Assembly: GCA_050260475.1 (NCBI GenBank)
Contig: JBLNCG010000055.1
Coordinates: 12,135 to 76,134 of the forward strand
Origin: Bacillota bacterium
GTDB taxonomy: Bacteria > Bacillota > UBA4882 > JBLNCG01
Reading direction: 5' to 3'
DNA length: 64,000 nt
In this document: in pieces, positions 6,656-60,545 of the stretch
Layout of the letters: every line of letters begins with the position of its first letter
Numbering within the stretch: position 1 is the stretch's first letter
Program-made: the position numbers and the translations under genes
Notes under the pieces: model-generated
What the model saw: only the letters and a program-made list of their open reading frames with translations
The model's database searches: none
What the model was told of the DNA's origin: nothing

Positions 6656-6869
6656 AAGGAAAATGCGTTGTTGCCTTAATGCCAGGTCTTGCCGCTGAAT
6701 ATAGTGTACGGCTACCATTAGGCTATCGGTATAGAAAATAGTTGCCTCATTTATTCCAATTAGCTTTAGGCTTTCTTTTCTTGAAATTTAAACTGTTGCC
6801 TAAAAGTTTGGATTTGCACAACGCTTTTAGCGGCAAGACGCAAAATTATCATAACACCGCAAATTGCTC
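6656..6869 (+). mobile_element. ~120-bp palindromic MITE-like element, copy 1 (with ~94-bp internal insert)
   Basis: Matches the family consensus at both ends; extra sequence at 6733-6826; flanks actaa/cataa. Confidence 0.8.
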
Positions 6870-6933
6870 CATAAGAAAAAACCCCTTGTTACAGGGGCCT
6901 TTTCCGTTAAGGAAAACCTGTTTGCGGCCTTCC

Positions 6934-7200
6934 TCATTGATCCACAACCTCCAGCATACCGTGAGCGACCGCGAAGAGCACAATCTGTGCACGGTTTTTC
7001 AAACCAAGCTTTTTTCTCAACGATGTCACGTAATTTTTTACGGTTTTATCGCTTAAAAAAAGTCTTTTGCTTATTTCATGGTTATCCAAACCCTGAATCA
7101 CCAGATCGAAAACTTCCCGCTCACGTGGGCCCAGAACCTGCAATGGATGAGCCGCCTGGTTCAAGGCCAGCTTTGAAACTACCTGTAGCATCCTCTTCAC
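6934..7200 (-). CDS. Stand-alone LuxR-type HTH regulator, GerE-like
   Basis: 88 aa: REREVFDLVIQG..EISKRLFLSDKTVKNYV...KLGLKNRAQ; no receiver domain. Confidence 0.8.
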   Translation of the reverse strand: MKRMLQVVSKLALNQAAHPLQVLGPREREVFDLVIQGLDNHEISKRLFLSDKTVKNYVTSLRKKLGLKNRAQIVLFAVAHGMLEVVDQ

Positions 7201-7305
7201 TCCCCGGCTTCCTCTTCGGCAAGCTGGAGTGAACCGCCTTCACTCCCTTTTCGGCTTCGGTGAGCCGAACTGCTCACCGAGTCGGAACTAATCATCCTCT
7301 AGCCA

Positions 7306-7334
7306 TATCGTATGATATATATACCGGCTTTGCT
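7306..7334 (-). promoter_or_regulatory. SigK-type promoter upstream of the GerE-like gene
   Basis: AGCA-N16-CATACGATA on the minus strand (consensus mACm-N16-CATAnnnTA; -35 imperfect). Confidence 0.5.
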
Positions 7335-7419
7335 ACAGATCCGGCCCCATTAAATTACATTGGTCCGCCTTCTCCATATCCATCGGATTTAAGGAAACCG
7401 GTGCCTAAAACGAGGAATT

Positions 7420-8526
7420 TCAACAAATCTCCTCATAAACATCGATGGTTTCCTTTGCAGCCGCTTCCCAGTCAAATCTCCGGTTGCATAAAAGTCCTTC
7501 AGCGCTAAGCTTGCGGACCAGGGTTTCATCCGTGGCCAGCATCCGCATCGCCTCCTCGATCTCCGCCGGTCGGTAGGGATTTACCAGAATAGCACTTTTG
7601 CTTACGATTTCAGGCATGGAGGAGACGTTTCCCGCAATGCACGGGATACCGCACGCCATCGCTTCCACCAAAGGCAGGCCGAATCCTTCGTATAAGGAAG
7701 GATATACAAGCGCCCGCGCGCCGTTATAAAGATAAGGCATTTCCTCCACCGGCACGAGCCCGGTCAGGATAACCTTGCCCTTCAGATTATAATATCCGAT
7801 AAGCTTTACGCATTCATCAAAACATCCTCCGTCAGGTCTTCCCACCACAGCAAGCTGGTATCCGGGAATTCTGGAATTTAACCGCGACAGGGATTTGATG
7901 ACAGCCAGCGCATTCTTTCGCCGGGAAAAACCACCCACATGTAAAAAATATCTGCCGGATTTTAAACCGTATTTGTCCAACACTTGGCGCCCGCTCTCGT
8001 CCATGGGGAGGGGGCGGTACACGGGATCCGCGGCCTCGTATATGATGCGTATTTTATCTTCCCGCACGCGCAGTATGCGCATGATATCATCTTTTGTCTG
8101 CATCGAAACGGCTATAATCATCCTGGCTTTTTCCACAATCCGGGGGACCATTTCCAAAAACAACCGCAGGTAAACCCGGCTGCACGTTTGCGGAAGTATA
8201 TACGGGATGAGATCATGGATCGTTACCACAAGAGGGGTTTTCGCCCACAATGCGGGCAGGCCGAAGCCATTTTGAGGATTATGATAAATATCCATCTTGC
8301 GCAGTGTGTGGCCGGCATCATCCTGCAGAGCCTGCCAGAAATTAATTTTTTTCAGGCGTATGGCAGGCTGGCAGGAGTTTAATTCTTCCAATTTTTCGCC
8401 CAGTGGTATGAATTGATGCTTTTCCCCGGCTATCCTGCTCAAATTATGCCACAACTGGTAGGTATAGGTTCCGATACCGCTTGCCCGGTACCATATTGCG
8501 GCCCTGACATCCAGACCAAGCCGCAT
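7420..8526 (-). CDS. Glycosyltransferase family 4 (CotSA-like)
   Basis: GIGTY, TIHDLIP and YPSLYEGFGLPLVEAMACG motifs; start at ATG 8526 behind GGAGG. Confidence 0.88.
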   Translation of the reverse strand: MRLGLDVRAAIWYRASGIGTYTYQLWHNLSRIAGEKHQFIPLGEKLEELNSCQPAIRLKKINFWQALQDDAGHTLRKMDIYHNPQNGFGLPALWAKTPLVVTIHDLIPYILPQTCSRVYLRLFLEMVPRIVEKARMIIAVSMQTKDDIMRILRVREDKIRIIYEAADPVYRPLPMDESGRQVLDKYGLKSGRYFLHVGGFSRRKNALAVIKSLSRLNSRIPGYQLAVVGRPDGGCFDECVKLIGYYNLKGKVILTGLVPVEEMPYLYNGARALVYPSLYEGFGLPLVEAMACGIPCIAGNVSSMPEIVSKSAILVNPYRPAEIEEAMRMLATDETLVRKLSAEGLLCNRRFDWEAAAKETIDVYEEIC

Positions 8527-8567
8527 CCAATCCCTCCTTTCCATAAACCGTAAAAAGCCCTCCGTCT

Positions 8568-9653: not shown

Positions 9654-9678
9654 TATTGCCGTACATTGTCTGCAATAT

Positions 9679-13302: not shown

Positions 13303-14946
13303 TCACTTCTCATTGCGCTTTCCGGCTCTTACCCGGCCGAAAGTATTTTCGATTTTCGCCAATTTTCCCGTCAGATCCGCCATTTGCCGCTTCAGAAGCT
13401 TTTTGTTGGCCGCGCAGTCTTTAAAAACCTGGAACAGTTGACCTTTAAGCTTGCCCCACCTGTATTCAAACGCGTTGAACAAGCCATGAATTTCATCAAT
13501 AGCAACCGCCGCCTGCCTTACGGCTTGGACCCTGCCGGCGGCCGCCTTTGCTCCTTCGGTTATCCCGTATTGTTCGTGCCTGGCCGGGATGGAAACGTTT
13601 ACCCCCATGGCTTTAATATTATCCGCCAAGGCAGTCAGGCCTTCCTGCTCGCCGTGAACCAGAAAAACGTGCTTCGGCCGTTTCGCAAACGCGCCGAACC
13701 AGTCGAGGATCCCCTTTTGATCCGCGTGGGCCGAGAAACCCTCAATGGAACATATTTGGGCCTTTACCGCGATGTCCTCCCCCAGGATCTTCACCGACTT
13801 CTCCCCATCTTTAAGACGCCGGCCCAGTGTCCCCTCCGCCTGATAGCCCACGAATAAAACGCGCGCTTCCGGGCGCCAGAGGTTGTGTTTAAGATGGTGT
13901 TTGATGCGCCCCGCCTCGCACATGCCGTTTGCGGAGATGATCACCGCCCCGGAGGTGATCTTGTTTAAAAGCATGGATTCCTCGGAGGTACGGACAAAAT
14001 GCAGCCCAGGAAAATCGAAGGGGCCTTCCCCCCGCCTGATCATCCGGTACGTTTCCTCATCAAAGCATTCCTGGTGTTTACGGTATATTTCCGTAACGGA
14101 GACCGCCATGGGGCTGTCGATATAAACAGGCAGGGGCGGTATTCTTTTTTCCTTGAGCAGCAGTTTAAATTCATAAAGCAGATCCTGGGTCCTGCCTACG
14201 GCAAAAGCCGGGATGATCAAATTACCCCCGCTTTTGACGCTGGCAACGATCAATTCCTCCAGCCTTCTGCGCTTTTCCGCAAGGCCTTCATGCATCCGGT
14301 TTCCATACGTGCTTTCCATCAGCAGCAGATCAGCGCCGTCCGCTGTTTCCGGATCCTGTATGATGGGTTGAGCGGTCTGCCCCAGGTCTCCGCTGAAGAT
14401 AATCTTCCTGGTTTTACCGCCCTCGGTGCACCAGACTTCGGCAAATGCGGAGCCGAGGATATGTCCGGCATCGCGCAAGACGAATTTAATCCCCGGGACC
14501 GGCCCGTTTTCACAACGATAAGGAACCGTCTCAAAATAATCCAGACTTCGCACAGCATCGTCCACCGTATATAATGGTTCGCGCTCCGGCATGCCGGACC
14601 GCGCCCTTTTCCTGTTTTTCCAATTTGTTTCCGTCTCCTGAATGTGGCCGCTGTCGGGAAGCATGACACGGCACAGGTCCGCGGTGGCTCCGGTACAGTA
14701 AATTCGATTCCGGAAACCTTCCTTTACCAGTTTCGGGATCAAACCGCTGTGATCGATATGGGCATGCGTCAGAATCACGGCATTCAATTTGCCGGGATCA
14801 AAAGGAAATTCCAGATAATTGCAAGCTTTTTCCTCTTTAGCCCCCTGGAACATCCCGCAATCGATCAAGATCTTTTTTCCGTTCGCTTCCAGCAAATAAC
14901 AAGAGCCTGTAACGGTCCGCGCTCCGCCGTAAAATGTCAGCCTCAT
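13303..14946 (-). CDS. MBL-fold/beta-CASP metallo-hydrolase (RNase-like) with C-terminal helical extension
   Basis: GGARTVTGS, THAHIDHSG, DAGHILGS, MESTYGNR, PAFAVGR and FSAHAD motifs; start at ATG 14946. Confidence 0.9.
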   Translation of the reverse strand: MRLTFYGGARTVTGSCYLLEANGKKILIDCGMFQGAKEEKACNYLEFPFDPGKLNAVILTHAHIDHSGLIPKLVKEGFRNRIYCTGATADLCRVMLPDSGHIQETETNWKNRKRARSGMPEREPLYTVDDAVRSLDYFETVPYRCENGPVPGIKFVLRDAGHILGSAFAEVWCTEGGKTRKIIFSGDLGQTAQPIIQDPETADGADLLLMESTYGNRMHEGLAEKRRRLEELIVASVKSGGNLIIPAFAVGRTQDLLYEFKLLLKEKRIPPLPVYIDSPMAVSVTEIYRKHQECFDEETYRMIRRGEGPFDFPGLHFVRTSEESMLLNKITSGAVIISANGMCEAGRIKHHLKHNLWRPEARVLFVGYQAEGTLGRRLKDGEKSVKILGEDIAVKAQICSIEGFSAHADQKGILDWFGAFAKRPKHVFLVHGEQEGLTALADNIKAMGVNVSIPARHEQYGITEGAKAAAGRVQAVRQAAVAIDEIHGLFNAFEYRWGKLKGQLFQVFKDCAANKKLLKRQMADLTGKLAKIENTFGRVRAGKRNEK

Positions 14947-14976
14947 GAAAGCACCCCCGCAAGACACTTCTTTACA

Positions 14977-15096
14977 ACGGCAATTGCATTGTTGCCTTAA
15001 TTCAAGGCCTTGCCACTAAATAAAGTGTATGGCTACCATTAGGCTATCCATATTTAGTGGCAAGACGTAAAATTATCATAACAACGCAAATTACTC
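14977..15096 (+). mobile_element. Palindromic MITE-like element, copy 2
   Basis: Full-length match to the family; flanks ttaca/ttacg. Confidence 0.85.
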
Positions 15097-15241: not shown

Positions 15242-15318
15242 CGGGGTGTGGCTCAGCTTGGTAGAGCGCACGGTTCGGGACCGTGAGGCCGGAGGTTCAA
15301 ATCCTCTCACCCCGACCA
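15242..15318 (+). tRNA. tRNA-Pro(CGG)
   Basis: CGGGGTG acceptor stem, anticodon loop TTCGGGA, GGTTCAAATCC T-loop, encoded CCA. Confidence 0.97.
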
Positions 15319-15326
15319 GATAAATT

Positions 15327-15353
15327 AAAATCAGGTTGCGCCTGATTTTTTTT
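15327..15353 (+). terminator. Intrinsic terminator after tRNA-Pro (bidirectional)
   Basis: AAAATCAGG-ttgcg-CCTGATTTTTTTT. Confidence 0.75.
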
Positions 15354-15384
15354 CATTTAAAAGACAAATGAGAGTATAACACTC

Positions 15385-15534
15385 TCATTTTCCCGTTTTG
15401 CCGCCGTTGACAGTCGAATTTGCCTGAATCGGTATGTCTTTTTCCAGCTTATCGCACATAAGATTCGTTAAAACCTCCAGTTCATCATTGCAATTTTTAA
15501 TTTTCTCAAGGATTTGGCTCAATCTCTCCGACAT
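15385..15534 (-). CDS. Small hypothetical protein (49 aa), not in the ORF track
   Basis: RBS AAAGGAGG; MSERLSQILEKIKNCNDELEVLTNLMCDKLEKDIPIQANSTVNGGKTGK*. Confidence 0.5.
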   Translation of the reverse strand: MSERLSQILEKIKNCNDELEVLTNLMCDKLEKDIPIQANSTVNGGKTGK

Positions 15535-15653
15535 CACTGGCCCTCCTTTGCAGGTGATATCATCTCTTAAAATTCATTTTCTATACCGCCGGCCGGAAAC
15601 CCTTCCAGGAGTTTCCTGGTTTTTTCGATAAAAAAAGGCAATTTCCGAGTCTT

Positions 15654-15851
15654 TTATTGTTGCGCGCCTTGCTGCATCATTTGCTGAATCTGTTGCTGCA
15701 GTTGGGTAATGTGCTGCATTTTGGCGTCCCGCATTTGGAAAAAAAGCTGGCGGACATCAGGCGTCATGATATCCACCGCGTGGTGATTATACATCGCTTG
15801 CAGCATCATTTCCCTGGCAAGCGAATCCTGGAGTTCATCAAGAGTATTCAA
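15654..15851 (-). CDS. Small Gln-rich half-ferritin-like putative spore coat protein
   Basis: RBS AAGGAGG; helical pattern L.DSLAREMMLQAMY...VRQLF.QMRD..MQHI..L. Confidence 0.6.
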   Translation of the reverse strand: MNTLDELQDSLAREMMLQAMYNHHAVDIMTPDVRQLFFQMRDAKMQHITQLQQQIQQMMQQGAQQ

Positions 15852-15864
15852 AGTTTCGTCCTCC

Positions 15865-16065
15865 TTATACTATCCCCAAACCGCCCATCTTTTGCAATAA
15901 AGTGCCGTAATGGCTGCGGGTTGCCTGTTCCATGCCCCGGAGCATCGGCAAAAGCTGGGGGTCGGTGGTTTGCTTGACCAGATCGGCATATTTCTTGGCC
16001 ATCAATTCTTCCTGGAACAGCATTTCCTTAAAGGCATTGTTCATCCGTTCCTTTTCGGTCAACAT
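15865..16065 (-). CDS. Small CotF/ferritin-like putative spore coat protein
   Basis: MLTEKE...EELMAKKY....TDPQL...Q...HY..LL pattern of clostridial small coat proteins; RBS GAGGTG. Confidence 0.65.
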   Translation of the reverse strand: MLTEKERMNNAFKEMLFQEELMAKKYADLVKQTTDPQLLPMLRGMEQATRSHYGTLLQKMGGLGIV

Positions 16066-16082
16066 TTTTTCACCTCGATAAT

Positions 16083-16460
16083 TCAGTTTTTAACGGAACA
16101 ATAAAAGTTACCGGCAGGGTCTATGGAAGCTAAATAAACATCCTCAATTTTCCTGATGCCGTTTTTTTGCAATTCCTGCTGAAGCCACGTCCGGTCGTGC
16201 CCGATTTGTTTCAAGTTTTTCGTTTGGACTATACCGTCGTTAATCAAAATTACCGGTAAACCTCCCGGAGCGGCTGGCAGGTTCAGTTCCACGGGGGTAG
16301 CCGGCTGGGCGTCCGCCTTTTTAACGACGCTGACATGGCCGCTGGTTTCCAGGACAGCAGCCTCGACTTCATAAATATTCGGCGCGTCAACAGTCCGTAA
16401 TTCCGAGAAAAGCAGCTCGAGTGGGAACAATCCTTTCTTTATCATGCTTATTATTATCCG
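16083..16460 (-). pseudogene. 5'-truncated DUF421/YetF membrane protein (C-terminal domain only)
   Basis: VEAAVLETSGHVSV, P..LINDG.V...NL and WL.QEL...GI..IEDVYLA motifs; the N-terminal TM part is replaced by AT-rich sequence lacking an RBS. Confidence 0.6.
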
Positions 16461-21765: not shown

Positions 21766-21882
21766 GAGCAATTTGCGTTGTTATGATAATTTTACGTCTC
21801 ACTAAACATCGATAGCCTAATGGTAGCCATACACTATATTTAGTGGCAAGACCTTGAATTAAGGCGACAACGCAATTGCCTC
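21766..21882 (-). mobile_element. Palindromic MITE-like element, copy 3, inserted in the 3' end of subunit E
   Basis: Full-length (3-bp internal deletion); 4-bp duplication TGAA on the minus strand. Confidence 0.88.
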
Positions 21883-25263: not shown

Positions 25264-27405
25264 TTAAAATCCGAACCACGTAAAAACGTTATTTCGGATG
25301 ATGAATACCGCAAATACAATCGCAACCATGGAAATCAATTTAATCAGAATATTGAGCGAAGGCCCGGAGGTGTCCTTGAAGGGATCGCCCACCGTATCCC
25401 CCACCACCGCCGCCTTATGAGCATCCGAACCCTTGCCGCCGTGCTGGTCCGATTCGATGTATTTCTTGGCGTTGTCCCACGATCCGCCGGCATTGGCCAT
25501 CATGATGGCCAATACGAATCCGGTCGCCGTAGCCCCGGCCAGCAGCCCGGCCACCGCCTCGGCGCCCAATAGAACCCCGATGATCACCGGGGATGAAATA
25601 GCGATTAGAGAAGGAACCACCATTTCCTTTTGCGCGGCGCGGGTGGAAATGTCCACGCAGGCGGCATAGTCCGGTTTGGCTTTACCTTCCATCAAACCTT
25701 TGATCTCCTTGAACTGGCGCCGAACCTCCTCCACAATTTTCTGGGCGGCCCTGCCCACCGCCTGCATGGTCAGGGAACAGAACATAAACGGCAGCATGCC
25801 TCCGACAAAAATCCCCACTAATACCTTGGGATTCATAATGGATAGCTCCTGAAACGTGAGTTGAATCTTTTCGTTGAAAGCCGCAATCAATGCCAGCGCG
25901 GTCAAAGCCGCGGAACCGATGGCGAATCCCTTGCCAGTGGCCGCGGTGGTATTTCCCAGCGAATCCAGGGCGTCCGTCCTCTCCCGGATTTCCCTGCCCA
26001 TCCCGGACATCTCCGCGATCCCGCCGGCATTGTCGGCGATGGGGCCATAGGCGTCCGTAGCCAGAGTGATACCCAGCGTGGAGAGCATGCCCACCGCGGA
26101 AATGGCTATGCCGTAAAGGCCCTTGATGAATCCCGGGTCGGTAAAGGCAAGCTTGGTGATATCAAGGGATCCGCCTGCCAAAATAAAACTTATCACAACG
26201 GAGACGCCCACGATTAAAACCGGAAAAGCGGTGGAAAGCATTCCCAGGGAAAGTCCGGCGATGATCACGGTGGCCGGTCCGGTTACGGATGTGCCGGCCA
26301 CCCGCCGGGTGGGTTTATAGGTGGCGGAGGTGTAATACTCCGTTAATATCCCGATAATCACTCCGGCCGTCAGGCCGCTGAGCACCGCCCAATATACGCC
26401 GAAATTGCCTTTACCCAGTATGTAATAAACAATAACCGCCGAGATCACGGCCATTAAAACTGAACTGGCATATACTCCCCTTCGCAATGCGGCCAACAAC
26501 ACGCTTTGTTTCGCTTGCTCCCCGGAGCGCACGAAGAACGTCCCGATAATCGAAGCCAGTACTCCGACCGCGGCCATGATCAACGGGACCAGCACCCCTT
26601 TCAGCCCGTATCCGGCCGCCACGCCCAGCGCGGAAGTGGCAACGATGGATCCCACGTATGATTCGTAAAGATCCGCCCCCATGCCTGCCACATCGCCCAC
26701 ATTGTCGCCCACGTTATCGGCAATAACCGCGGGATTGCGCGGATCGTCCTCAGGGATCCCCGCCTCCACCTTACCCACCAGGTCTGCGCCCACATCCGCG
26801 GCCTTGGTGAAGATGCCGCCGCCCACGCGGGCGAACAGAGCCATGGAACTTGCGCCCATGCCGAAGTTTAACATGGCCTGGGTGATGATGGGAAGGCTTT
26901 GATCCATACTGAATCCCCTAATAACCGTATAATACCATCTTAGTCCGTAAAACCAGAGACTTAAATCCAACAATCCCAATCCCACCACGGTTAAACCCAT
27001 GACCGCGCCGCTGTTGAAAGCCACCCGCAGGCCTTTGTTCAGGCCTTTGCCGGCTGCCTGCGCCGTGCGCACGTTGGCCCCAGTGGCGGTCATCATGCCG
27101 ATGTAACCGGATAATCCCGAGAAAAAACCGCCGGATAAAAAAGCAAACGGCACCACTATCGGTACATATTTAAATATCGCCAGCAGAATCAAGATACAAA
27201 ACATCACCGCAAAAAATATCCCGACGGTCTTATATTGCCGTTTTAAGTAGGCCACCGCTCCCACTCGAATGGCGTTTGAGATCTCCCGCATTTTGCCTGT
27301 ACCCGGTTCCTGTCTGTTTAAAAAAACCGCGCCCAGGTAAAACGCGTAAATCAAGGCCAAAGATGCTCCCATCGGAGCCAATATCAAAAGGCTCGTGACA
27401 TTCAC
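25264..27405 (-). CDS. hppA: Membrane-integral ion-translocating pyrophosphatase (K+-dependent, probably Na+-pumping)
   Basis: [47 protein letters not shown] (Ala form, K+-dependent) and [10 protein letters not shown] motifs. Confidence 0.95.
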
Positions 27406-27542
27406 GTCTAACGCCTCCAGTCAAATTATATTATTTATACTATACCGAATATTTTTACATTTTAGTCTATAAAAACGCACAAAATCCAATATTCGATGGG
27501 CAAAAAAAAATCCCTCTCCAATGATGTTAACTTTTTCTAAAC

Positions 27543-27663
27543 AAGGCGATTGCGTTGTTACCTTAATACCAAGTATTACCACTAAATATAGTGCATAGCT
27601 ACCATTTGGGCCAACGATATTTAGTGGCAAGACGTAAAATTATCACGACAACGCAAATTGTTC
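27543..27663 (+). mobile_element. Palindromic MITE-like element, copy 4
   Basis: Full-length; perfect 5-bp flanking duplication TAAAC (27538-27542 and 27664-27668). Confidence 0.88.
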
Positions 27664-27704
27664 TAAACAGCTTCCCGCAATAATTATTTTCCGCCGCCCC
27701 TGCG

Positions 27705-28145
27705 TCAAGAGTTTTTTGATCCCAGGGACATGATTTTTTCCACGCGTACGGCATGGCGTCCGCCGTCAAAACCCGTGCTGAAGAATATACCGCAGATCTC
27801 CTTGGCCAATTCCGGCCCGATCACCCGTCCGCCCATGACCAGGACGTTGGCATTGTTGTGGGCGCGCGCCATCCGCGCGGAATACGTGTCATGACAAAGA
27901 GCCGCCCGGATTCCGGGCATTTTGTTGGCGGATATGGACATTCCAATGCCTGTGCCGCAGATGAGAATCCCCCGATCGTCCTGTCCGGAGATTTTACGGC
28001 AAAGCGTTTCCGCGATATCCGGATAATCTACGGACTCGGCGGTAAATGTCCCGATATCCTTGAATTTTAATCCCCGGGCTGAGAGACAGGGGATTAATTC
28101 GTTTTTTAACGCCAAACCTCCCTGATCGCAACCGATGTAAATCAT
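27705..28145 (-). CDS. rpiB: Ribose 5-phosphate isomerase B
   Basis: SVDYPD, GILICGTGIGMSISANK, HNNANVL and FDGGRH motifs. Confidence 0.95.
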   Translation of the reverse strand: MIYIGCDQGGLALKNELIPCLSARGLKFKDIGTFTAESVDYPDIAETLCRKISGQDDRGILICGTGIGMSISANKMPGIRAALCHDTYSARMARAHNNANVLVMGGRVIGPELAKEICGIFFSTGFDGGRHAVRVEKIMSLGSKNS

Positions 28146-38432: not shown

Positions 38433-38504
38433 CGTATGGCCACCATTAGGCCATCGATATTTAGCGGCAAGACGCAAAATCATCATAACAAACGCAAATT
38501 GCTC
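38425..38504 (+). mobile_element. Palindromic MITE-like element, copy 6 (right half only)
   Basis: Central loop through to the GCAAATTGCTC terminus; overlaps the deacetylase stop codon. Confidence 0.8.
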
Positions 38505-40323: not shown

Positions 40324-41775
40324 CTATCTGCCGATAAACTTCCGCAAGTCGTCCATGGACTGAACGTCCTTCTCTGTGGCCACTTTTTGCCCGGGCAGTA
40401 ATAAATCCGCTATCCGAGGGTATAGGCCGCTATCTACCCAGGCCACGTTCCCGATCCCGCCGTCGCCCTTGAGGAAATTCCTTGATCTGATATAAGCGTT
40501 GGAAACGCCGGTAATCCCGTCGCACTGTTTGCCGCCGGCGCGGTTTGCCAGCATGTCCCAGGTCAGGCCGCCGGGGACGACGGCCGGAGAATTGCGGGAC
40601 ATGATGCCGATTCCCCGCGCCTCCCCGATCCAGAAGGCCAGGTTCTGGAAGCATCCGCAGGAAGTATGGGGAAAGGAACGCAAGGAATGCAGAAAAACCC
40701 TTTGCAGTTTTCCGCGGGTCATTTCCCTGTATATCGCATTGCAACCTTCATATTCCCCTTTTTCCCCGTCCAGGATCCGGCCTTTTTCAAAAACCGCCTT
40801 TAGCGGCAAATCCGTTTCGGAGCGCCGTTGATATGGAAAGACAATATTGCCCAGGCAAACGTCGGCTTTAACCGTATAATATGTCCTGGAAGCGCACGTG
40901 GGAACGCGTTCCGGAGTAAGGATGCAAGTATGTTCCACTGAGAACGGGCGGCACTCGGTGCAAACGCAGAAATCGTCCGTATTCTCTTCGGTCATTCCCT
41001 TGATGAACCTGCCGCGCCTCTTTTTATATTCTTTTACTTCCCGCGCTTTTTGCTTCAGCGTCCCCTCAGGGCGATTTCCATGGAGAAAGCGCCGTTTTTC
41101 TCGGACGCCTTGATCCCGGAGAGGTAATTCAACGCCTTCAGGGCGGTCTGTTCCACCATGGCAGCCAGATCACCGCTTAATTTCTTATCGTCTATTTCAA
41201 TGACAAAACCGATGTCATCCCCGGGCTACCGCTGACAACGGTTTCCCTGCGCGCGCCCTTGACGGGCATGACGCAGAAAAACGAATTTACGCCGCCGCCC
41301 AGGACTTTGACCGGCGCGAATTCTTATTGGCGTAAGCGGTATTGCAGTATTCGGGAAGCCGGATAGCCTCATTGCCGATATAGCGTACGCGTAAATTTGA
41401 AAACCGCATCCCTTTGGCGACGATTTCCTCCGGATCCTCCGCAACCACTCGCCTGCCGTAGGGAAATGGAAAATTTCCGGGCACTGTCGCGGGGGCGCCG
41501 AAAAGCATCAATCCCAGGGCAATCAGATATTTTAAATCAGTCAGCGATTTATGAATGATGATCAATCCGGGCAGATCCTCTTCCAGGAAATGGCCCATCC
41601 GGTGGTCATCCCCGGGCGCAATTCTTCCCCAGATCAGCCCGTACCGCACCATCATCTGCAGGAAATAAATGGGAGAAGTGTCCCTGGCGCCGATGAAGCG
41701 AGTATCAGGGATGCCCGGGAGGTCCGTGAAAATCATAAAGCCTTTTTCCTTTAGCTTTTCAACCAGCGGTTTCTT
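40324..41775 (-). pseudogene. Fragmented acetyl-CoA synthase (AcsB/CdhC-like)
   Basis: 3' fragment retains A-cluster motifs CTECRPFSVEHTCILTPER..TC and HTSCGCFQ; upstream fragment has RYGLIWGRI.PGD; frame breaks between ~41000 and 41300; 5' end lost at repeat copy 7. Confidence 0.75.
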
Positions 41776-41842
41776 CGATAGTCTAACGGTAGCCATACAC
41801 TATATTTAATGGCAAGACCTGGCATTAAGGCAACAACGCAAT
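41775..41842 (-). mobile_element. Palindromic MITE-like element, copy 7 (left half only)
   Basis: TCGATAGTCTAACGGTAGCCATACACTATATTTAATGGCAAGACC...AAGGCAACAACGCAAT. Confidence 0.8.
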
Positions 41843-48253: not shown

Positions 48254-49894
48254 TTAACAGCACCGCGAAATAGGATGCACGCCGCGGGAACGGCCGGTTT
48301 GATAGCCCGCCGGAACCGGTTGGCGGCTTTTTTGATAACATTTGGATACCGGGTGAACTCCGCGGTAAATCAAGAGATCCGATCCGCAAGTACTATCGGC
48401 CGGGCGGTTCCATTCCGGACCGTACGACCATTGGTCCGCGGCATAATACCTCACCAGGCACTCTTTCGCCCATGACAAAAGACGTTCCATGCCATGGGGA
48501 TTCCTCTTGAACCCGATTAAGCCCGCGGCATTATAGATGTTTGGCTTTTGACCTTCTTGAAGCGCATCCTGACGGAAACAATAAAGGATTGCAGGTTTTT
48601 TTCCCCAGCCCGCCAGAACCCTCTCCATATTTTTCAAGTATGTCATATCCGGAGCAAGATAGACAAGGGAATCCATCTGAAAATTGTTATTTAACAAGAA
48701 ATGCATAAACCAGACTTTTATGTCGTTAAAATAGCGGCACGGATCGGGTTTATCCCTGACCAGGTTTCTCAAGTGGAATAGTACGGCATCCTTCAATTTC
48801 ATCGGCGCGAACAGGTCATAGCTCATGTCATCCGCACAGCAAACCCAAAGGCGGCAGTTTTTAATCCGCCTCTTTAAGGATCGATACATTTCCCACCCTT
48901 GCGCTGCGCATCGATGGTCCAGAACCGTACAAAAATTTGCCGTCGTCCGGCTTCCCAAAATACCGGGCTCAAGATGGAAATAATTCCCGATGTATAAATA
49001 TTTTTTTTCCGCCTCGCGATAAAGGCCGCGCTCCCACAATTTAAACTGCTCCATGACATCCCGGCAGGCGTAAATATACGGCAAATATAACCATTTAATC
49101 GCGTCATCGCTGAGTTCATTGTTGTAGTAGCACAAATCATATTCGTTCCTATTGCAGTACCTGAACCCGTAATAATGGTAATTGACCAGCCTTTGGCCAT
49201 CAACATATATGGAACCGCCCTTTTTGGCGACCGAACAGCCTTGGATAATATACGGCGTGGCGTTGACCCCTATATTCCTCATTACCCCGACGTTTTCAAA
49301 TCTGGATGGCCAATCGTTCACATAGACCTGGTCGCTCCACAAACCGTTTTCCTGCCTGTCGTAACACCATTCCAGCAGCTTATCCCTGAACCATTTCAAA
49401 CATCGCAGGGCGTTGGCGTCCCTTCTGTATCCCATAAAACCGGTATTATAAATCCCATTTGTCGACCCCAGGCGCTTATCCTGTTCCCTCCATCTTTCCG
49501 GCGTCAGCATAATGGAATATTTTCCCCATTCGTCGAAAATCGGCCCGGGATTTGAATAAAACCGGGTATCACCGTCCAGCCACGCTATCCGATTGACTTC
49601 CGGGTAGCGCTCAAACAAATATAAACACGCGGAAGCTTTGGCCGTCCAGATATATTCCTTGTCGTTGCGCAGCTCTTTTACCGCCTTCAAGCCCCGTTCA
49701 TACGCCTCAACCTCCGCCATGCCCATCACTGCCGCATATCTTAAATTCATTTTCTCAAAGAAACTTTTTACATTATCGTGCAAACAAATCATATAAAAAC
49801 AAAAATCCGGATCCCACCTTTCCAGCGATTTATATAAAAGCAGGCCCTTATAAGCGTAATCTTTGCTAAAAATTGAGTAATAGTAGTGTTTCAT
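48254..49894 (-). CDS. GT-A glycosyltransferase paralog 4 (full domain plus degenerate second domain)
   Basis: KEYIWTAK, WLDGD, YNTGFMG, WSDQ.Y...WP and YHYYGF motifs; second repeat starts near NFCTVLD; start at ATG 49894. Confidence 0.75.
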   Translation of the reverse strand: MKHYYYSIFSKDYAYKGLLLYKSLERWDPDFCFYMICLHDNVKSFFEKMNLRYAAVMGMAEVEAYERGLKAVKELRNDKEYIWTAKASACLYLFERYPEVNRIAWLDGDTRFYSNPGPIFDEWGKYSIMLTPERWREQDKRLGSTNGIYNTGFMGYRRDANALRCLKWFRDKLLEWCYDRQENGLWSDQVYVNDWPSRFENVGVMRNIGVNATPYIIQGCSVAKKGGSIYVDGQRLVNYHYYGFRYCNRNEYDLCYYNNELSDDAIKWLYLPYIYACRDVMEQFKLWERGLYREAEKKYLYIGNYFHLEPGILGSRTTANFCTVLDHRCAAQGWEMYRSLKRRIKNCRLWVCCADDMSYDLFAPMKLKDAVLFHLRNLVRDKPDPCRYFNDIKVWFMHFLLNNNFQMDSLVYLAPDMTYLKNMERVLAGWGKKPAILYCFRQDALQEGQKPNIYNAAGLIGFKRNPHGMERLLSWAKECLVRYYAADQWSYGPEWNRPADSTCGSDLLIYRGVHPVSKCYQKSRQPVPAGYQTGRSRGVHPISRCC

Positions 49895-50103
49895 ACGCCC
49901 ATCCCCTTTCCGCCAATGAACAGCCACCGATTATTTGAACCCGGCATGGTGATCACTATAAGTGTGATAGGCTATCATATTTAAAAAACCGTAAATTGGC
50001 ATAAGTACATATTACTGATTTTTACTGCAAAAGAATCAAATCATTCGCCATATGCCGACGGGTAAATCGCCGGAAAACGGCCATTAGGCTTTGTAAATGT
50101 CAT

Positions 50104-51057
50104 TTATGGAACCGGTGATGGAATCAGGTATTTATAATAATGCGTGATATTTTCGGCTTTTTTTTCATTGGTCAATCCATAAGAAAAAGTGTTATCAACC
50201 TTATAAACATTTTTCATCGCCTCCCCTATCGCCGCCATATATGGAACATAAACCGGGCTTATAACGGCTTCATTCACCTTCCACCAGTTGCACAAATCGA
50301 ATTCAAACCAATTTAAAATGACAAATCCGGTAAAATGATATACAACCAACATATGGCCATCAATATATAACTCATTATTCCAGACATTGATCTTTGGGGC
50401 GGTTTGATTATGTCCAACATTCCACGGACCCACATTCACTCCCGAGTCTTTTGATACAGTCACGCTGGAGAATAATTCCGGCCATTTATCCAAATACTTT
50501 TGATCCGTCCACCGATCTCCGTCATGCCAGTGATAACACCATTCCAAGCATTTAGACCTCCACCATTCCAGGCATCGAGAAGCATTCAAATCTTTCTTGA
50601 AACCTATCAGCCCTGCCTGGTAGATGCCTGTGTCGATCCGCTTGTCGGCAAGCTTTTGTTCGCAGATAAAAATGGATCCCTCTCCCCATTGCTTAAAAAT
50701 CGTTACAGGATCTGCAAAAAAATATAAGTCCCCATCGATATAGATTATTGATTTTAAAAAATCGTAGTTTTTTAAAATATGCAGTACAAGCGGTGCCTTT
50801 AAAGTCCAACTATATTCGCTTGCTGTCCGAAACCCTTTTATGGCAAGAAGTTCATCATCTTCCATGCTTTCCAGGGATATAAGCGTGACAGCGTCCAGCC
50901 CCATCCCGTCCAGCAATCTTTTGGAAATATCATCCATACAGCATATCCAGAGGTGAAAATCGGCCGAGTGTTTTTTTAACGAATAATACAACGCCAAGCC
51001 TTTATATAAATATTCTTTGTCGATAATTGTACAAAAATGGTAACATTCTTTATCCAT
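50104..51057 (-). CDS. GT-A glycosyltransferase paralog 3
   Basis: FCTII...YLYKGL, EYSWTLK, YIDGD, WTDQKYLDKWP and YHFTGF motifs. Confidence 0.8.
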   Translation of the reverse strand: MDKECYHFCTIIDKEYLYKGLALYYSLKKHSADFHLWICCMDDISKRLLDGMGLDAVTLISLESMEDDELLAIKGFRTASEYSWTLKAPLVLHILKNYDFLKSIIYIDGDLYFFADPVTIFKQWGEGSIFICEQKLADKRIDTGIYQAGLIGFKKDLNASRCLEWWRSKCLEWCYHWHDGDRWTDQKYLDKWPELFSSVTVSKDSGVNVGPWNVGHNQTAPKINVWNNELYIDGHMLVVYHFTGFVILNWFEFDLCNWWKVNEAVISPVYVPYMAAIGEAMKNVYKVDNTFSYGLTNEKKAENITHYYKYLIPSPVP

Positions 51058-51958
51058 TGTTTTCTCCGCGATAAACGCAATCGATGGAATCCATTACCTC
51101 ATTGCACGCATGAATATATGGAAGATATATCAATCGCACATCCTGATCCGTGAAACATGTGGAATACGAGCATAAATCAAACTCGCGTTCATTATAGTAT
51201 TTGAATCCATAGTAGTGAAATAATATCAATCTGCTATCGCCAATATATATTCCATCATTTTTCCGATTGACGGAATAACCCAATTCCGTTCTTAAATAAT
51301 AAAGGATAAACGGCGTGACATTGATCCCTAAATTTCGCGCCACCCCCACGTTATTAAATCTTGATCTCCAGCCATTAACGTACATTTGATCGCTCCACAA
51401 TCCTTCTTCATGCCTGTCAAAACACCATTCGATCAATTTTTCCCTGAACCAGCGAAGGCACTCAAGCGCGTCCCTATCCCTTCTGAACCCCATAAAACCC
51501 GTATTATAGAACCCGTTCATTCTGCCAAGCCATTCATACTTGCCGTTAAATTTTTCCTCCGTAAGAAATATGGAATAATTGCTCCATTCATCGAATATCG
51601 GCCGGGGATCCGAAAAAAACGCAGTATCACCGTCCAGCCAGATAATATGGTCTATCGCGGGAAAGCTATCCAGCAAATATCTAAGCGTCGATGCTTTCGC
51701 GGTCCAAATAAATTCCTTGTCGCTGCGCGAATTTGCACTTCTTATATCTGCCAATTCAAAATCCTCATTTTCTATATCCCTTATGCTTATCAACGTTAAA
51801 TCTTCCAGCCGCATCTTTTCGAGCAGGTATTTTACTTCATCATGCAGGTATATAAGAAAGAAATGAAAATCCGGATCATATTTTTTTAATGAGTTATACA
51901 AGATCAATCCCTTATAAATATAATCCTTGCTATTGATGGAACAATAATTGTGACGCAT
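51050..51958 (-). CDS. GT-A glycosyltransferase paralog 2
   Basis: YCS..SKDYIYKGL, KEFIWTAK, WLDGD, WSDQMY and FHYYGF motifs. Confidence 0.8.
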   Translation of the reverse strand: MRHNYCSINSKDYIYKGLILYNSLKKYDPDFHFFLIYLHDEVKYLLEKMRLEDLTLISIRDIENEDFELADIRSANSRSDKEFIWTAKASTLRYLLDSFPAIDHIIWLDGDTAFFSDPRPIFDEWSNYSIFLTEEKFNGKYEWLGRMNGFYNTGFMGFRRDRDALECLRWFREKLIEWCFDRHEEGLWSDQMYVNGWRSRFNNVGVARNLGINVTPFILYYLRTELGYSVNRKNDGIYIGDSRLILFHYYGFKYYNEREFDLCSYSTCFTDQDVRLIYLPYIHACNEVMDSIDCVYRGENNG

Positions 51959-51998
51959 TTGATTAAACTCCCCGCTAAAGTTCGTTATATGCCGGTGA

Positions 51999-53555
51999 TT
52001 AAATCGTGATAATCTTCACACCCGAAAACATGTGCGGCCAATCGTCAATATATTTCCCTTCCTCCCATCCATCCTGTTCGACCCCGTCACAGTGCCATTC
52101 CAGACATTTTCCCCTCCACCACCACAAGAATTTAAATGCATTTTCATCACGCCTGAATCCTATTAAGCCAACCCGATTCATATCGTTTGTTGATTCCGTT
52201 TTATCACCGGATCCCCGCTGATATACAAAGATTGATCCATTTTCCCCATCGCCAGGCATCTTTGGGGGATCGGCGGCGGAAAAAACATCTGCATCCGCAT
52301 AAGCAAGATAATCTACGTAATAGTTACACCTCAGAATATGCAAAACCAGCGGCGCTTTCAATGCGCGGCAATATTCATATGGTTTCCGGGTATCTTTTAT
52401 GTTTAACAGTTCACCGTCTTCAATGTTTTGGGCATCTATCACTATTATACTCTCCAGTCCCATATCCGCCAGCATATCGTAAGTTACGTCATCCATGCAG
52501 CAGATCCAAAGGCGGAAATTTCTTGCATGTTTTCTTAATGAACAATATAATGCCAGCCCTTTTATCAGACGCTCGCTGTTGATAATCGCACAAATATTAT
52601 ATTTCCCTTTTTCCCTGTCTGGATTGTTTTCCAATCTAAAGTAATTCATGATGAATCCGCCTTTTGTACTTCGGCGGCGGTTGAATCCTTTATTAAATCG
52701 ATATATCAAATCAATTGCCTCATTGCATGCCTTAACATACGGAAGATATATCCATTGTAAAACATGATCGGCAATGTCATTGCCATGTGCGCACAAATCA
52801 TAATCAATTCCATTATAATATTTGAATCCGTAAAAATGGAATAATATCAATCTGTCGGCCCCGATGTAGATATCATCTTCCGCTCTGGCAACTGTTTTGT
52901 TTTGTATAATAAACAAGTTGGCGTTGATTCCAATGCTCCGTACAACGCCGACATTATCAAACCTGGCCGGCCAGTCGTTGACATACATCTGATCGCTCCA
53001 TTTGCCGCCTTCGGGTTTTTCAAAACACCATTCGATCAGTCTTTCCCTGAACCAATGAAGACAATTAAACGAATTTTCCCCTCTTTTAAACCCCATGAAG
53101 CCCGTATTATAAACTCCGTATATCTTGCTTAACCAATCATATTCCCCCGTATATTTCTCTTCTGTCAGAAGAATGGAATAATCACCCCACTCATCGAAGA
53201 TGGGTTGAGTATCCGAAAAAAAAGCCGTATCGCCGTCCAGCCATATGATATGATCCATTTCAGGAAAATGATCGAACAGATATAACAAGGCGGATGCCTT
53301 GCTGGTCCACACATATTCCTTATCGTTGCGCGCGGCCTTAATGCCTGCCAATTCCCGATCTTCATCTTCAACATCCTTCATACTTATTAATGTGGCATTG
53401 TTCAAATTCAATCTTTCCAACACGTTTTTCACTTCATCATGCAAACATATAAAGAAGAAATGAAAATTACGGTCATATTTCTTTAATGTATCATATAAGA
53501 CCAATCCCTTGTAAATATAATCCTTACTGTAGGTTGAGCAGTAATAATGCGCCAT
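51999..53555 (-). CDS. GT-A glycosyltransferase paralog 1 (full domain plus partial second domain)
   Basis: Domain 1 as in paralog 2; domain 2 has KGLALY.SL, EYC.ALK, YADAD, GLIGF and KYIDDWP. Confidence 0.8.
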   Translation of the reverse strand: MAHYYCSTYSKDYIYKGLVLYDTLKKYDRNFHFFFICLHDEVKNVLERLNLNNATLISMKDVEDEDRELAGIKAARNDKEYVWTSKASALLYLFDHFPEMDHIIWLDGDTAFFSDTQPIFDEWGDYSILLTEEKYTGEYDWLSKIYGVYNTGFMGFKRGENSFNCLHWFRERLIEWCFEKPEGGKWSDQMYVNDWPARFDNVGVVRSIGINANLFIIQNKTVARAEDDIYIGADRLILFHFYGFKYYNGIDYDLCAHGNDIADHVLQWIYLPYVKACNEAIDLIYRFNKGFNRRRSTKGGFIMNYFRLENNPDREKGKYNICAIINSERLIKGLALYCSLRKHARNFRLWICCMDDVTYDMLADMGLESIIVIDAQNIEDGELLNIKDTRKPYEYCRALKAPLVLHILRCNYYVDYLAYADADVFSAADPPKMPGDGENGSIFVYQRGSGDKTESTNDMNRVGLIGFRRDENAFKFLWWWRGKCLEWHCDGVEQDGWEEGKYIDDWPHMFSGVKIITI

Positions 53556-55988: not shown

Positions 55989-56108
55989 AAGGCAATTGCG
56001 TTGTTACCTTAATTCAAGGTCTTGCCGCTAAATATCATGTACGGTTACCATTAGGCTATCGATATTTAGCGGCAAGATGTAAAATCATCATAACAACGCA
56101 AATTGCTC
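55989..56108 (+). mobile_element. Palindromic MITE-like element, copy 8
   Basis: Full-length, near-consensus; no clear TSD; ends 14 bp before the rnpB -35 box. Confidence 0.85.
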
Positions 56109-56122: not shown

Positions 56123-56152
56123 TTGACATACCCCTTGATTATATGTTATTAT
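56123..56152 (+). promoter_or_regulatory. SigA promoter of rnpB
   Basis: TTGACA-N18-TATTAT with an extended TG. Confidence 0.65.
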
Positions 56153-56176: not shown

Positions 56177-56544
56177 AGCAAGTGATCCGGGTAACCGCGG
56201 AAGCGATTCCGAGGAAAGTCCGAGCTCCGCAGGGCAGGATGCTGGGTAACGCCCAGTGAGGGTGACCTTAAGGAAAGTGCCACAGAAAAGGAAACGCTGA
56301 AGCCGTGTCGCCTTGCAGCGCATGGCATTGCAAAGCTGAAAAGGTGCGGTAAGAGCGCACCAGCGGGCGGAGAACCGCCCGGCTTGGTAAACCCCATCCG
56401 GAGCAAGACCAAATAGGGGAGATATGGAGTTGCCCGCTCTTCTCCCGGGTAAGGTCGCTGGAGGCTGCAGGCAACCGCAGTCCAAGAGAAATGGTTACCG
56501 CCCCTTAAAGGGGGTACAGAACTCGGCTTACAGGATCACTTGCT
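56177..56544 (+). ncRNA. rnpB: RNase P RNA (type A-like)
   Basis: GAGGAAAGTCC, AGTGCCACAGAAA, GGTAAACCCC, GAGCAAG and ACAGAACTCGGCTTA motifs; P1 stem AGCAAGTGATCC/GGATCACTTGCT. Confidence 0.97.
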
Positions 56545-56613
56545 AAAATCAGTTATCAGTAAACACTCAACTTTCGCACTTTGATTTTACTGATCGCTGT
56601 TCACTGAAAAAGT

Positions 56614-57805: not shown

Positions 57806-57925
57806 GAGCAATTTGCGTTGTTATGATAATTTTACGTCTTGCCACTAAAAATCGATAGCCTAATGGTTGCCATACACTATATTTAGTGGCAGGCCTTAGC
57901 ATTTAGGAAACAATGCAATTGCCTC
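57806..57925 (-). mobile_element. Palindromic MITE-like element, copy 9
   Basis: Full-length; flanks agata/agatt. Confidence 0.85.
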
Positions 57926-58726: not shown

Positions 58727-58911
58727 CAGCTCCTGGTTGCCCCCAGCAAATCCTTATACGTATCTATATCCATGCCAACTTCCGTCCGCTTGGTGGCGAG
58801 ATCCGATCCTTTATTGCGCGCACATTCCACACACCGCTTGGTTTCGGGCAGTACTTTCAACCGTTCTTCCGCGATCGGCTTTTGACAAATCTCACACAAC
58901 CTCATAACCAT
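58726..58911 (-). CDS. TraR/DksA C4-type zinc finger protein
   Basis: CEICQKPIAEERLKVLP....CVECA. Confidence 0.85.
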   Translation of the reverse strand: MVMRLCEICQKPIAEERLKVLPETKRCVECARNKGSDLATKRTEVGMDIDTYKDLLGATRS

Positions 58912-58944
58912 GCCCCCTTGTAAGCGGTTATAAGCCGCTTTATT

Positions 58945-60057
58945 CTACCGTACTAAAGAACCGGTGGATGAACTCCATAAAGGCTCCACCGCCGCTTCGA
59001 AAACCCGCAGGCCCTGGAATCTTTCCCGCAGTAAAGACGCAACCTGCGGAACAAACCACTTTTCCAGCCCGCCGTGGCCCGCATCGATGAGCGATAATCC
59101 CAGGGCTTCGGCCTTCAACCAATCGTGATGGGTAACATCGCCGGTAATCAGAACATCCGCACCGGCTTTAACAGTCCTAAGGATCAGGCCTCCTCCTTTT
59201 CCGCCGCATACGGCGACTTTTTTTATATGCGAACCGCACTGCTTCCATCTTAACTCGGAAAGCTGAAGCTTTGTGCGGCAAAAATCCAGAAAACTACTCC
59301 AAGCCATTCTTTTTTCCAGTTCCCCCACCCGTCCGAGACCGTGCTGAATCCCCGGATTCGCCAAAGGATAAAGATCGTACGCCACCTCCTCATAGGGGTG
59401 GGCGGCGCGCATCGCATTTAAGGCCGGGCTTATCTGCGCCTCCTTTAAAATCGTCTCCAGACGGTATTCCCGGGCCTTTTCCAATCTGCCCTCCCGCCCG
59501 ATGAAAGGTTTTGTCCCTGCAAGCGGCAAGAATGTTCCCGTACCTTCGGTTTGGAAGGTGCAAAAAGAATAGTTTCCTATCCATCCCGCTCCCGCCCGGC
59601 ACAAAGACTCGCGCACCTTGTCCTCGTACCCCCGCGGCACAAAGACAACAAGCTTGAAAAGCTTTTCCTCCTTCAGGTCCAGCGCCTGAACATTCCGCAG
59701 GGATAAAAGCTCGGCCAGATGCCCGTTTAAACCCCTTTGCGCGCAATCCCAGTTGGTATGAAGGCAAATAAGGTTAAGGTCGCGTTTGCAGATATCGGCC
59801 ACCAGGCGCCCCTCGGGTTCGGTGCCTATTATGGCGGACATCGGTTGATAAATCAAGGGATGATGCGTGACAATCAACCGGCATTCCAGCCTCACCGCCT
59901 CGGTAATGATCCGCCCGGTCAGGTCAAGCGCTACTATCACGCCCGGAACATCTCCGCCGGATAAGGCGATTTGCAGACCGGGTTTTTCAGGTCCATCCGC
60001 GCACCACCCTGGGGCAATGCTGAGAAGATAAGACTCTATTTCCTGCGGATTCGGCAA
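58945..60057 (-). CDS. Nif3-like dinuclear metal center protein (YqfO)
   Basis: THHP, HTNWD, KLVVFVP, AHPYEEVAYD, TGDV.HH and DAGH motifs. Confidence 0.92.
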   Translation of the reverse strand: MPNPQEIESYLLSIAPGWCADGPEKPGLQIALSGGDVPGVIVALDLTGRIITEAVRLECRLIVTHHPLIYQPMSAIIGTEPEGRLVADICKRDLNLICLHTNWDCAQRGLNGHLAELLSLRNVQALDLKEEKLFKLVVFVPRGYEDKVRESLCRAGAGWIGNYSFCTFQTEGTGTFLPLAGTKPFIGREGRLEKAREYRLETILKEAQISPALNAMRAAHPYEEVAYDLYPLANPGIQHGLGRVGELEKRMAWSSFLDFCRTKLQLSELRWKQCGSHIKKVAVCGGKGGGLILRTVKAGADVLITGDVTHHDWLKAEALGLSLIDAGHGGLEKWFVPQVASLLRERFQGLRVFEAAVEPLWSSSTGSLVR

Positions 60058-60298
60058 AACATTATCCCCCCGGAGGAATTAACTGCCGATATTTTATATC
60101 AAGCCCAGGCATCTCCGCTGATAATTCTGCACAGGCATGATTTTTCCTGCAGAGAGCCGGCCCGCAAAAATAAAGGGACGTCCGGGGAAAAACCGTTTTT
60201 ACCTGGGAGACTATACGAAAAAATTTTCAGAGAATTGTCGGATCCGATATGGGGGAGGATTAAAATAATAAAACCGGCTTTGTCGCCGGGTAAAAACA

Positions 60299-60373
60299 TG
60301 GTGGGCCCACCTGGGATTGAACCAGGGACCGATCGGTTATGAGCCGACTGCTCTACCGCTGAGCTATGGGCCC
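60299..60373 (-). tRNA. tRNA with CAT anticodon, probably tRNA-Ile2 (lysidine)
   Basis: GGGCCCA acceptor stem, CTCATAA loop, encoded CCA; no initiator features. Confidence 0.9.
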
Positions 60374-60428
60374 GAAACATAAATATAAGTGTAAATTGAA
60401 AAATTTTTTAAAACGCGAATTCTGATAA

Positions 60429-60545
60429 GAGCAATTTGCGTTGTTGTGACAATTTTACGTCTTGCTAAATATCGATAGCCTAATGGCAACCATACACTAT
60501 ATTAAGCGGCAAGACCGTAAATTAAGGTAACAACGCAATTGCTTC
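60429..60545 (-). mobile_element. Palindromic MITE-like element, copy 10 (between two tRNAs)
   Basis: Full-length (3-bp deletion); perfect 5-bp duplication GATAA (60424-60428 and 60546-60550). Confidence 0.88.

Follow-up and report, generated by a model that had tools for sequence, protein, structure and literature searches.

A dense family of ~120-bp palindromic repeats, probably a decayed miniature transposon, in a spore-forming Bacillota bacterium

A 64,000-nucleotide stretch of DNA from a Bacillota bacterium (GenBank assembly GCA_050260475.1, contig JBLNCG010000055.1, positions 12,135 to 76,134 of the forward strand; hereafter the window) carries a non-coding repeat of ~120 bp that occurs at ten places and folds back on itself. 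Are these repeats the remains of a mobile element, genes or control elements for a structured RNA, or palindromes of the REP type? The repeat has terminal inverted repeats (TIRs), copy-specific 5-bp duplications at its flanks and no coding capacity, and its copies lie in both orientations in intergenic DNA only, which supports its assignment as a non-autonomous DNA transposon. [quoted passage not shown] The original prediction, made from the letters of the DNA alone, was a non-autonomous element mobilised in trans by a DDE transposase. The transposon features bear it out; what we infer, rather than observe, is that a DDE-type enzyme acted in trans, that transposition came in one burst and that the family is now inactive.

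Copies and architecture of the repeat

A profile built from the seven full copies was employed to search both strands of the window with nhmmer (E ≤ 10). The matches fell at ten places only, comprising seven full copies of 117-121 bp, one split copy and two halves; all other rows were self-matches on the opposite strand that result from the palindromy. The E-values of the full copies ranged from 7.5e-35 to 9e-39. The ten predicted positions were thereby reproduced, and no further place was found. When up to three mismatches were allowed, a 25-nt motif of the loop occurred 7 times in the window and not once in 100 shuffles, and a repeat finder placed the copies in its families D2, D3, D5, D6 and D8. 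The pairwise identity of the full copies was 80-92% (mean 86%), with a mean column identity of 90%. The plus strand carries six copies and the minus strand four, in keeping with the two orientations noted earlier, and both senses relative to neighbouring transcription are represented (copy 3 is sense and copy 4 antisense). The density of the family in the window is ~1 copy per 6 kb; the earlier suggestion that the genome could hold hundreds of copies is an extrapolation from this figure.

The majority consensus consists of two imperfect inverted arms of ~48 nt, identical at 40 of 51 aligned positions, on either side of an asymmetric core or loop of ~25 nt. The TIRs are the outer ~17 nt of each arm. 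They form an outer stem (14 pairs, one bulge) in which 93.9% of the cells are paired, and the inner stem is near-perfect with 16-17 pairs; the stretch of 13-14 nt between the two stems is only about half complementary. Standard pairs were found in 90.1% of 232 pair cells, compared with 31-42% when the 3' partner columns were slid by 1-3 columns. These counts match the nested hairpin with imperfect TIRs, inner stem and asymmetric loop that had been described for the element. Folded as single-stranded DNA, all seven full copies were more stable than their shuffles (z from -2.3 to -8.0, the latter being copy 8), and for six of the seven none of 200 shuffles folded equally well. The four copies folded as RNA gave energies of -36.8 to -50.1 kcal/mol (z from -4.4 to -9.0), the values for copies 3 and 8 being -38.6 and -50.1 kcal/mol, respectively.

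The element has no coding capacity: most of the six frames contain stops, and the lone open frame, in copy 8, has 39 codons. Moreover, no transposase, integrase or Y1-transposase domain was detected when 64 open reading frames (ORFs) of the window were compared with NCBIfam and 27 otherwise unexplained ORFs with Pfam, consistent with the absence of a transposase that had been reported for this DNA. Thus the repeat is small and without coding capacity, it has TIRs and copy-specific duplications, and its dispersed copies lie in both orientations, which are among the features by which MITEs are recognised.

Although 85.7% of the window is genic, the midpoints of all ten copies are intergenic (P about 3e-9 under random placement), and the copies together make up 13% of the intergenic DNA in the window. 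Three copies overlap the ends of ORFs by 6-22 bases, and three of the ten adjoin stable-RNA genes (tRNA-Pro, RNase P RNA and tRNA-Asn/Met). Most copies do lie upstream of genes, as remarked earlier, but in a window so densely filled with genes such positions are nearly unavoidable. The copies are listed below with their nhmmer E-values, the sequences of the left and right flanks, the number of flank positions out of five that match, and their settings.

Copy 1, 6656-6869, plus strand: full but interrupted; nhmmer model positions 2-77 at 6657-6732 and 76-120 at 6825-6869; flanks ACTAA (6651-6655) and CATAA (6870-6874), 3/5; between a terminator-like hairpin (~6878-6905) and the start of the gene at 5844-6512(-).
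Insert in copy 1, ~6732-6825: 94 bp, between the loop and the right inner stem by global alignment.
Copy 2, 14977-15096, plus strand: full, E=2e-38; flanks TTACA and TTACG, 4/5; between a beta-CASP nuclease gene, 13306-14967(-), and tRNA-Pro, 15242-15318(+).
Copy 3, 21766-21882, minus strand: full, E=9e-38; flanks TTGAA and TGAAC, 2/5 in the 5-bp register, with a perfect abutting 4-mer TGAA; in the V-type ATPase operon between ntpE and ntpC, sense with the operon.
Copy 4, 27543-27663, plus strand: full, E=7.5e-35; flanks TAAAC and TAAAC (27538-27542 and 27664-27668), perfect, 5/5; between rpiB (27708-28145, minus strand) and a pyrophosphatase gene (25267-27405, minus strand), antisense to both.
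Copy 5, 28767-28887, plus strand: full, E=4e-37; flanks TAACC and TAGCC, 4/5; in the intergenic region that separates the divergent 28145-28663(-) and 28931-29491(+).
Copy 6, 38424-38504, plus strand: right half only (model positions 41-120), E=1.3e-20; the break adjoins the 3' end of a polysaccharide deacetylase gene, 37665-38429(+), whose stop codon lies within the remnant.
Copy 7, 41775-41842, minus strand: left half only (model positions 7-74), E=5e-17; the break adjoins a 5'-truncated acetyl-CoA synthase fragment, 41290-41796(-).
Copy 8, 55989-56108, plus strand: full, with the best-preserved palindrome, E=9e-39; flanks ATAAG and TCGCG, 1/5; 15 bp upstream of a promoter-like TTGACA-18-TATTAT (56123-56152), which is followed by the RNase P RNA at 56179-56546.
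Copy 9, 57806-57925, minus strand: full, E=3e-38; flanks AATCT and TATCT, 4/5; directly after a terminator-like hairpin, 57956-57939(-).
Copy 10, 60429-60545, minus strand: full, E=1e-35; flanks TTATC and TTATC (GATAA on the plus strand), perfect, 5/5; between tRNA-Asn, 60606-60680(-), and tRNA-Met, 60299-60373(-), sense with the tRNA genes.

The 94-bp insert of copy 1 was considered as a possible second mobile element, and a blast comparison with the window revealed no other copy of it. The state of copy 7 fits a deletion that would have taken both the element's right half and the beginning of the adjoining gene.

Target duplications and the ntpE/ntpC junction

To evaluate the flanking duplications in the eight copies that have both ends, the k bases directly before the element were compared with the k bases directly after it, and left flanks paired with right flanks at random gave the null. 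For k=5 the flanks agreed at 28 of 40 positions; the permutations averaged 15.7, and a single one in 20,000 reached 28. There was no excess over the re-pairings in these eight copies at k=3, 4, 6, 7, 8 or 9. As a background, random pairs of 5-mers lying 120 bp apart in the window matched at all five positions in only 0.14% of cases. The 5-bp duplication is perfect in two copies (4 and 10), retained at four of five positions in three (2, 5 and 9) and at three of five in copy 1; the list of duplications drawn up in the original prediction was correct for every copy. Because the duplicated 5-mers vary among copies, they are part of the target sites rather than of the element, and copy-specific 5-mers of this kind are the signature of a 5-bp staggered cut.

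The target sites also have a sequence bias. T filled 19 of the 24 cells between positions -8 and -6 (P=8e-7), and A filled 15 of the 24 between +6 and +8 (P=9e-4); these P values are optimistic because the positions were picked after the flanks had been viewed. The duplicated 5-mers are 70% A+T, compared with 57% in element-free intergenic DNA. Several of the flanking T-runs are the tails of terminator-like hairpins: this is the case for copy 9, and copies 1 and 6 adjoin G+C-rich hairpins with A/T runs.

Copy 3 offers a view of what an insertion did to its target. On the coding strand, the sequence ATG CTT TTT GAA is followed by the element (beginning GAG GCA ATT GCG TTG TCG CCT TAA) and then by TGAACAATAGGGGGAGGAACAAGTG, so that the element provides the last seven codons and the stop of ntpE (EAIALSP, followed by the stop). 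When copy 3 and one TGAA were removed in silico, the sequence became MLFEQ-TAG-GGGGGAGG-GTG, that is, a stop codon for ntpE, the ribosome-binding site GGGGGAGG and the GTG start of ntpC. Furthermore, the lone non-self homologue of NtpE that was found (48% identity, 198 aa) shows a gapless alignment that starts at residue 1 and runs to its own end at the aligned ILF; this is residue 198 in both proteins, 8 residues short of the end of the NtpE of the window and 2 residues before the junction. Since the homologue stops there, the element-derived seven-residue tail is an addition. The reconstructed junction is what would be expected of an insertion into a compact operon junction; it may serve as an internal proxy for an empty site, as distinct from a true orthologous one, and as such adds support to a transposition origin.

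These features suggest the following course of events. A transposase encoded elsewhere would bind both ends and insert the element by a 5-bp staggered cut, repair of which would give rise to the 5-bp duplication. The preferred targets would be A+T-rich and built as a T-run, 5 bp and an A-run, as in terminator tails and promoter-proximal spacers. Insertions within genes would be purged by selection, so that the survivors would be intergenic or located at the extreme 3' ends of genes. One master sequence would have given rise to the family, which would then have decayed neutrally, some copies being truncated or interrupted. Copies 3 and 10, which lie inside transcription units, must add a very stable hairpin to the RNA, with no sign in these copies of selection for the hairpin.

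Search for relatives and comparison with known elements

Rfam gave six gathering-level matches in the window, none of which lies on an element, and in a permissive Rfam scan of copy 8 the best score was 23.5 bits against a cutoff of 114. A degenerate 25-nt pattern of the loop, which fits 8 of the 10 window copies, had no match in 185,579 species genomes, one per species. A degenerate 24-nt pattern of the right end, which fits 8 of the 9 window copies that have a right end, matched at two loci in the same genomes, in a Desulfobacterales metagenome-assembled genome (MAG) and in Shewanella basaltis; only 24-31 nt around the pattern aligned to the profile, and both were set aside as chance matches. 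Copy 8 had no blastn match in 72,556 plasmids, in 50,697 phage records or in 5,426 complete E. coli genomes (word size 11 and E ≤ 0.01 for the last). The left 40-nt end had no match in the plasmids at E ≤ 10; the right 40-nt end matched 31 plasmid records at E=6, within genes for hypothetical proteins, which is chance level. The 39-aa read-through of copy 8 had no match at E ≤ 0.001 among 1.84 billion protein representatives, a weak negative given the short query and the single frame. Additionally, three sequence strings of the element did not occur in ~8.4 million full texts. In line with the earlier remark that the family was not a recognised one, the repeat had no relative in Rfam at gathering score, in the species genomes, plasmids, phages, E. 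coli genomes and protein representatives, or in the literature strings.

The element was compared with described repeats on the basis of excerpts of the cited papers. Bacterial MITEs such as Correia/nemis, RUP, ERIC, Nezha and Chunjie are described there as small, non-coding, multicopy and intergenic, with TIRs, a long hairpin and flanking direct repeats (PMC3184786, PMC10969869). The element is like them in size, in being non-coding and intergenic, and in its TIRs, hairpin and direct repeats, and no sequence relation to them was found at the sensitivity used. ERIC, to which it had been likened in the original prediction, is an imperfect palindrome of ~127 bp that is intergenic, occurs in both orientations, is flanked by TA and is classed as a MITE (PMC3184786). 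The likeness extends to architecture only: the duplications here are 5 bp and varied, not TA, the host belongs to another phylum, and the E. coli genomes contain no blastn match to copy 8.

In the literature examined, the nearest Firmicute analogue is bcr1 of the Bacillus cereus group, a folded element of ~155 bp with 5-bp direct repeats and non-conserved genomic positions that is described as a transcribed cruciform of two independent stem-loops with compensatory changes (PMC3184786). The Firmicute host, the 5-bp repeats and the folded structure are shared; in contrast, the element of the window is one long nested hairpin with weak covariation. The distinction from bcr1 is by description and not by sequence alignment, and apart from the two chance matches the patterns of the element were absent from the 185,579 species genomes.

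The Tn3-derived miniature elements known as TIMEs are 262 bp long, have 38-bp repeats and 5- or 6-bp A+T-rich duplications, lack a transposase gene and are mobilised in trans (PMC4133298). The element shares with them the 5-bp duplication, the A+T-rich target, the long ends (arms of ~48 nt here) and the lack of a transposase gene. However, it is 120 bp rather than 262 bp long, and its 40-nt ends showed no similarity to Tn3-type ends in the 72,556 plasmids, blastn being of limited sensitivity for a diverged 38-mer. The ends of the Tn3 family begin with GGGG, whereas those of the element begin with GAGG and GAGC. We know of no family in the ISfinder table that joins GAG-type ends with a 5-bp duplication.

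Decay, rival explanations and host

The mean substitution distance of the copies from the majority consensus was 7.7%. The decay of the duplications was determined in six copies, copies 3 (register shift) and 8 (no duplication) being left out, and amounted to 5 mismatches in 30 positions, which implies ~8.3% per site. The two values are similar, as would follow from descent of all copies from one master and drift since insertion. The level of substitution was 7.0% in paired and 8.5% in unpaired columns, and mismatches in the stems included 7 of the G:T and 10 of the A:C type. Since G:T is not commoner than A:C, neither strand is favoured as RNA. The similar rates in paired and unpaired columns, the lack of strand asymmetry and the agreement with the decay of the duplications point to neutral decay. 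The truncation of copies 6 and 7, the unique insert in copy 1 and the loss of the duplication in copy 8 also fit an old family. The picture of a mobile element presented earlier thus holds for a transposition origin and not for current activity, as the copies look old and neutrally decaying.

Several observations weigh against a neutrally decayed MITE family. A duplication is missing from copy 8, that of copy 3 is only a 4-mer in register, and the duplication statistic is based on eight copies only. A parent insertion sequence or transposase with matching ends was not found among the ORFs of the window, which covers 64 kb of a contig of 80,054 bp, with the end pattern in the 185,579 genomes or in the plasmids. 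The element was present in no other sequence searched, and there is consequently no orthologous empty site or presence/absence polymorphism to compare. Watson-Crick pairs occupied 87.1% of the cells, compared with 82.7% expected for the neutral decay of a perfect palindrome. Compensatory changes were seen in three pairs, a number reached in 17 of 500 shuffles. Conservation of the loop (92.6%) and of the right spacer (94.3%) is no lower than that of the stems, and the right arm and loop are the best-conserved segments. The compensatory pairs and the excess of Watson-Crick pairs are at most a weak hint of constraint.

These hints bear on the view that selection for RNA structure maintains the copies, either as genes for structured non-coding RNAs or as RNA hairpins with a cis-regulatory role (attenuators, stabilisers or processing sites). 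Such a role would account for the very stable folds of all four copies examined as RNA, the three compensatory pairs, the well-conserved loop and right spacer, and the location of copies 3 and 10 inside transcription units, the V-type ATPase operon and the interval between two tRNA genes. However, the copies lie in both senses relative to neighbouring transcription, mismatches compatible with G:U pairing are not in excess over A:C, paired and unpaired columns change at the same rate, and covariation is weak. Moreover, the 5-bp duplications are not explained by an RNA gene and no Rfam family matches, making this view very improbable. The strong DNA hairpins, the palindromy, the intergenic location and the density of the copies also recall REP/BIME-like sequences or IS200/IS605-type palindromes (PATEs), which would be moved in single-stranded form by a Y1/HUH transposase (RAYT or TnpA). 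Elements of these kinds are accompanied by a Y1 transposase and are not known to duplicate their target, and REPs are GC-rich and 20-40 bp long. The 120-bp units with TIRs and 5-bp duplications are at odds with this origin, no Y1 transposase was found among the window ORFs searched against NCBIfam (64) and Pfam (27), and the E. coli genomes, which are rich in REP and BIME, gave no match; it is scarcely credible here.

A MITE origin could also be combined with later co-option of some copies by the host, the loop or right spacer serving as a site for a nucleoid or regulatory protein, or the element as an upstream promoter element of stable-RNA genes. The three copies beside stable-RNA genes, the end of copy 8 at 15 bp before the promoter-like site of rnpB, and the better conservation of the right arm and loop are in line with this. 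On the other hand, the overall decay equals that of the duplications, a preference for A+T-rich targets would by itself place copies near promoters and terminators, and the sample is small. Co-option is accordingly judged improbable, and an old, neutrally decaying MITE family is the preferred explanation of the ten copies.

The genes of the window indicate a spore-forming Bacillota host, with Spo0A, CotS-family coat proteins, a V-type ATPase operon, a membrane pyrophosphatase and Rex. In a database of 5.8 billion proteins, the best relative of the V-type ATPase subunit I had 51% identity, and Spo0A had one match at 67% identity, the rest being at or below 50%; the named relatives of Spo0A were few, namely "Bacillota bacterium" MAGs, Hydrogenispora and Capillibacterium. 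Judged by these protein comparisons, the host is only distantly related to anything named and represents a deep-branching, uncultured and poorly sampled lineage of Bacillota.

The RNAs of the window comprise a class A RNase P RNA, four tRNAs and a T-box leader, the last at 874-1102(-) (96.4 bits, cutoff 93) upstream of a gene for an aspartyl-tRNA synthetase of the non-discriminating type, 3-836(-). Some neighbours of the copies deserve mention in their own right. The ORFs 40327-40995(-) and 41290-41796(-), where copy 7 lies at the break, match non-adjacent positions of the acetyl-CoA synthase/CO dehydrogenase (CODH) profile (477-695 and 172-318 of ~710); the pair is without the first ~170 residues and resembles a broken, 5'-truncated acsB pseudogene. 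The beta-CASP metallo-beta-lactamase nuclease beside copy 2, 13306-14967(-), scored 435 bits on the NCBIfam model of type VII CRISPR Cas14 (cutoff 800; profile positions 1-444 of 612). Neither cas neighbours nor a CRISPR array were observed, and it is probably an ordinary CPSF/RNase J-like enzyme. Stretches of 550-760 bp at 6870-7420 and 15320-16085 have no convincing gene, and the ORFs 6864-7229 and 15657-15974 had no family match in NCBIfam or Pfam. Farther away, 48257-53555(-) contains three tandem paralogous genes in a polysaccharide-synthesis cluster, two of which weakly match Glyco_transf_8; the paralogues share DNA segments that are 70-75% identical (repeat families D1, D4, D7, D9 and D10).

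MITEs are well known, and the family changes no concepts: it is new as a sequence family, its kind is not, and there is no evidence of a function beyond selfish spread followed by neutral decay. It nevertheless represents a clean, statistically supported and dense MITE family in a poorly sampled lineage of Bacillota. A bolder view, conceivable although rather unlikely, is that the family is the footprint of an undescribed transposase lineage in deep-branching spore-forming Bacillota, either an unrecognised insertion sequence family or a divergent Tn3-like enzyme, with ends of ~48 nt, a strict 5-bp stagger and a palindromic T3-N5-A3 target, whose miniature derivative was amplified to the density and the share of intergenic DNA seen in the window; the copies near the rnpB promoter and in the tRNA and V-type ATPase operons may then have host roles. 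Furthermore, the copies mark spots at which gene callers mis-extend ORFs, as in the tail of ntpE and the stop codon of the deacetylase gene, and the profile could serve to bin or track the lineage in metagenomes and to seek its transposase.

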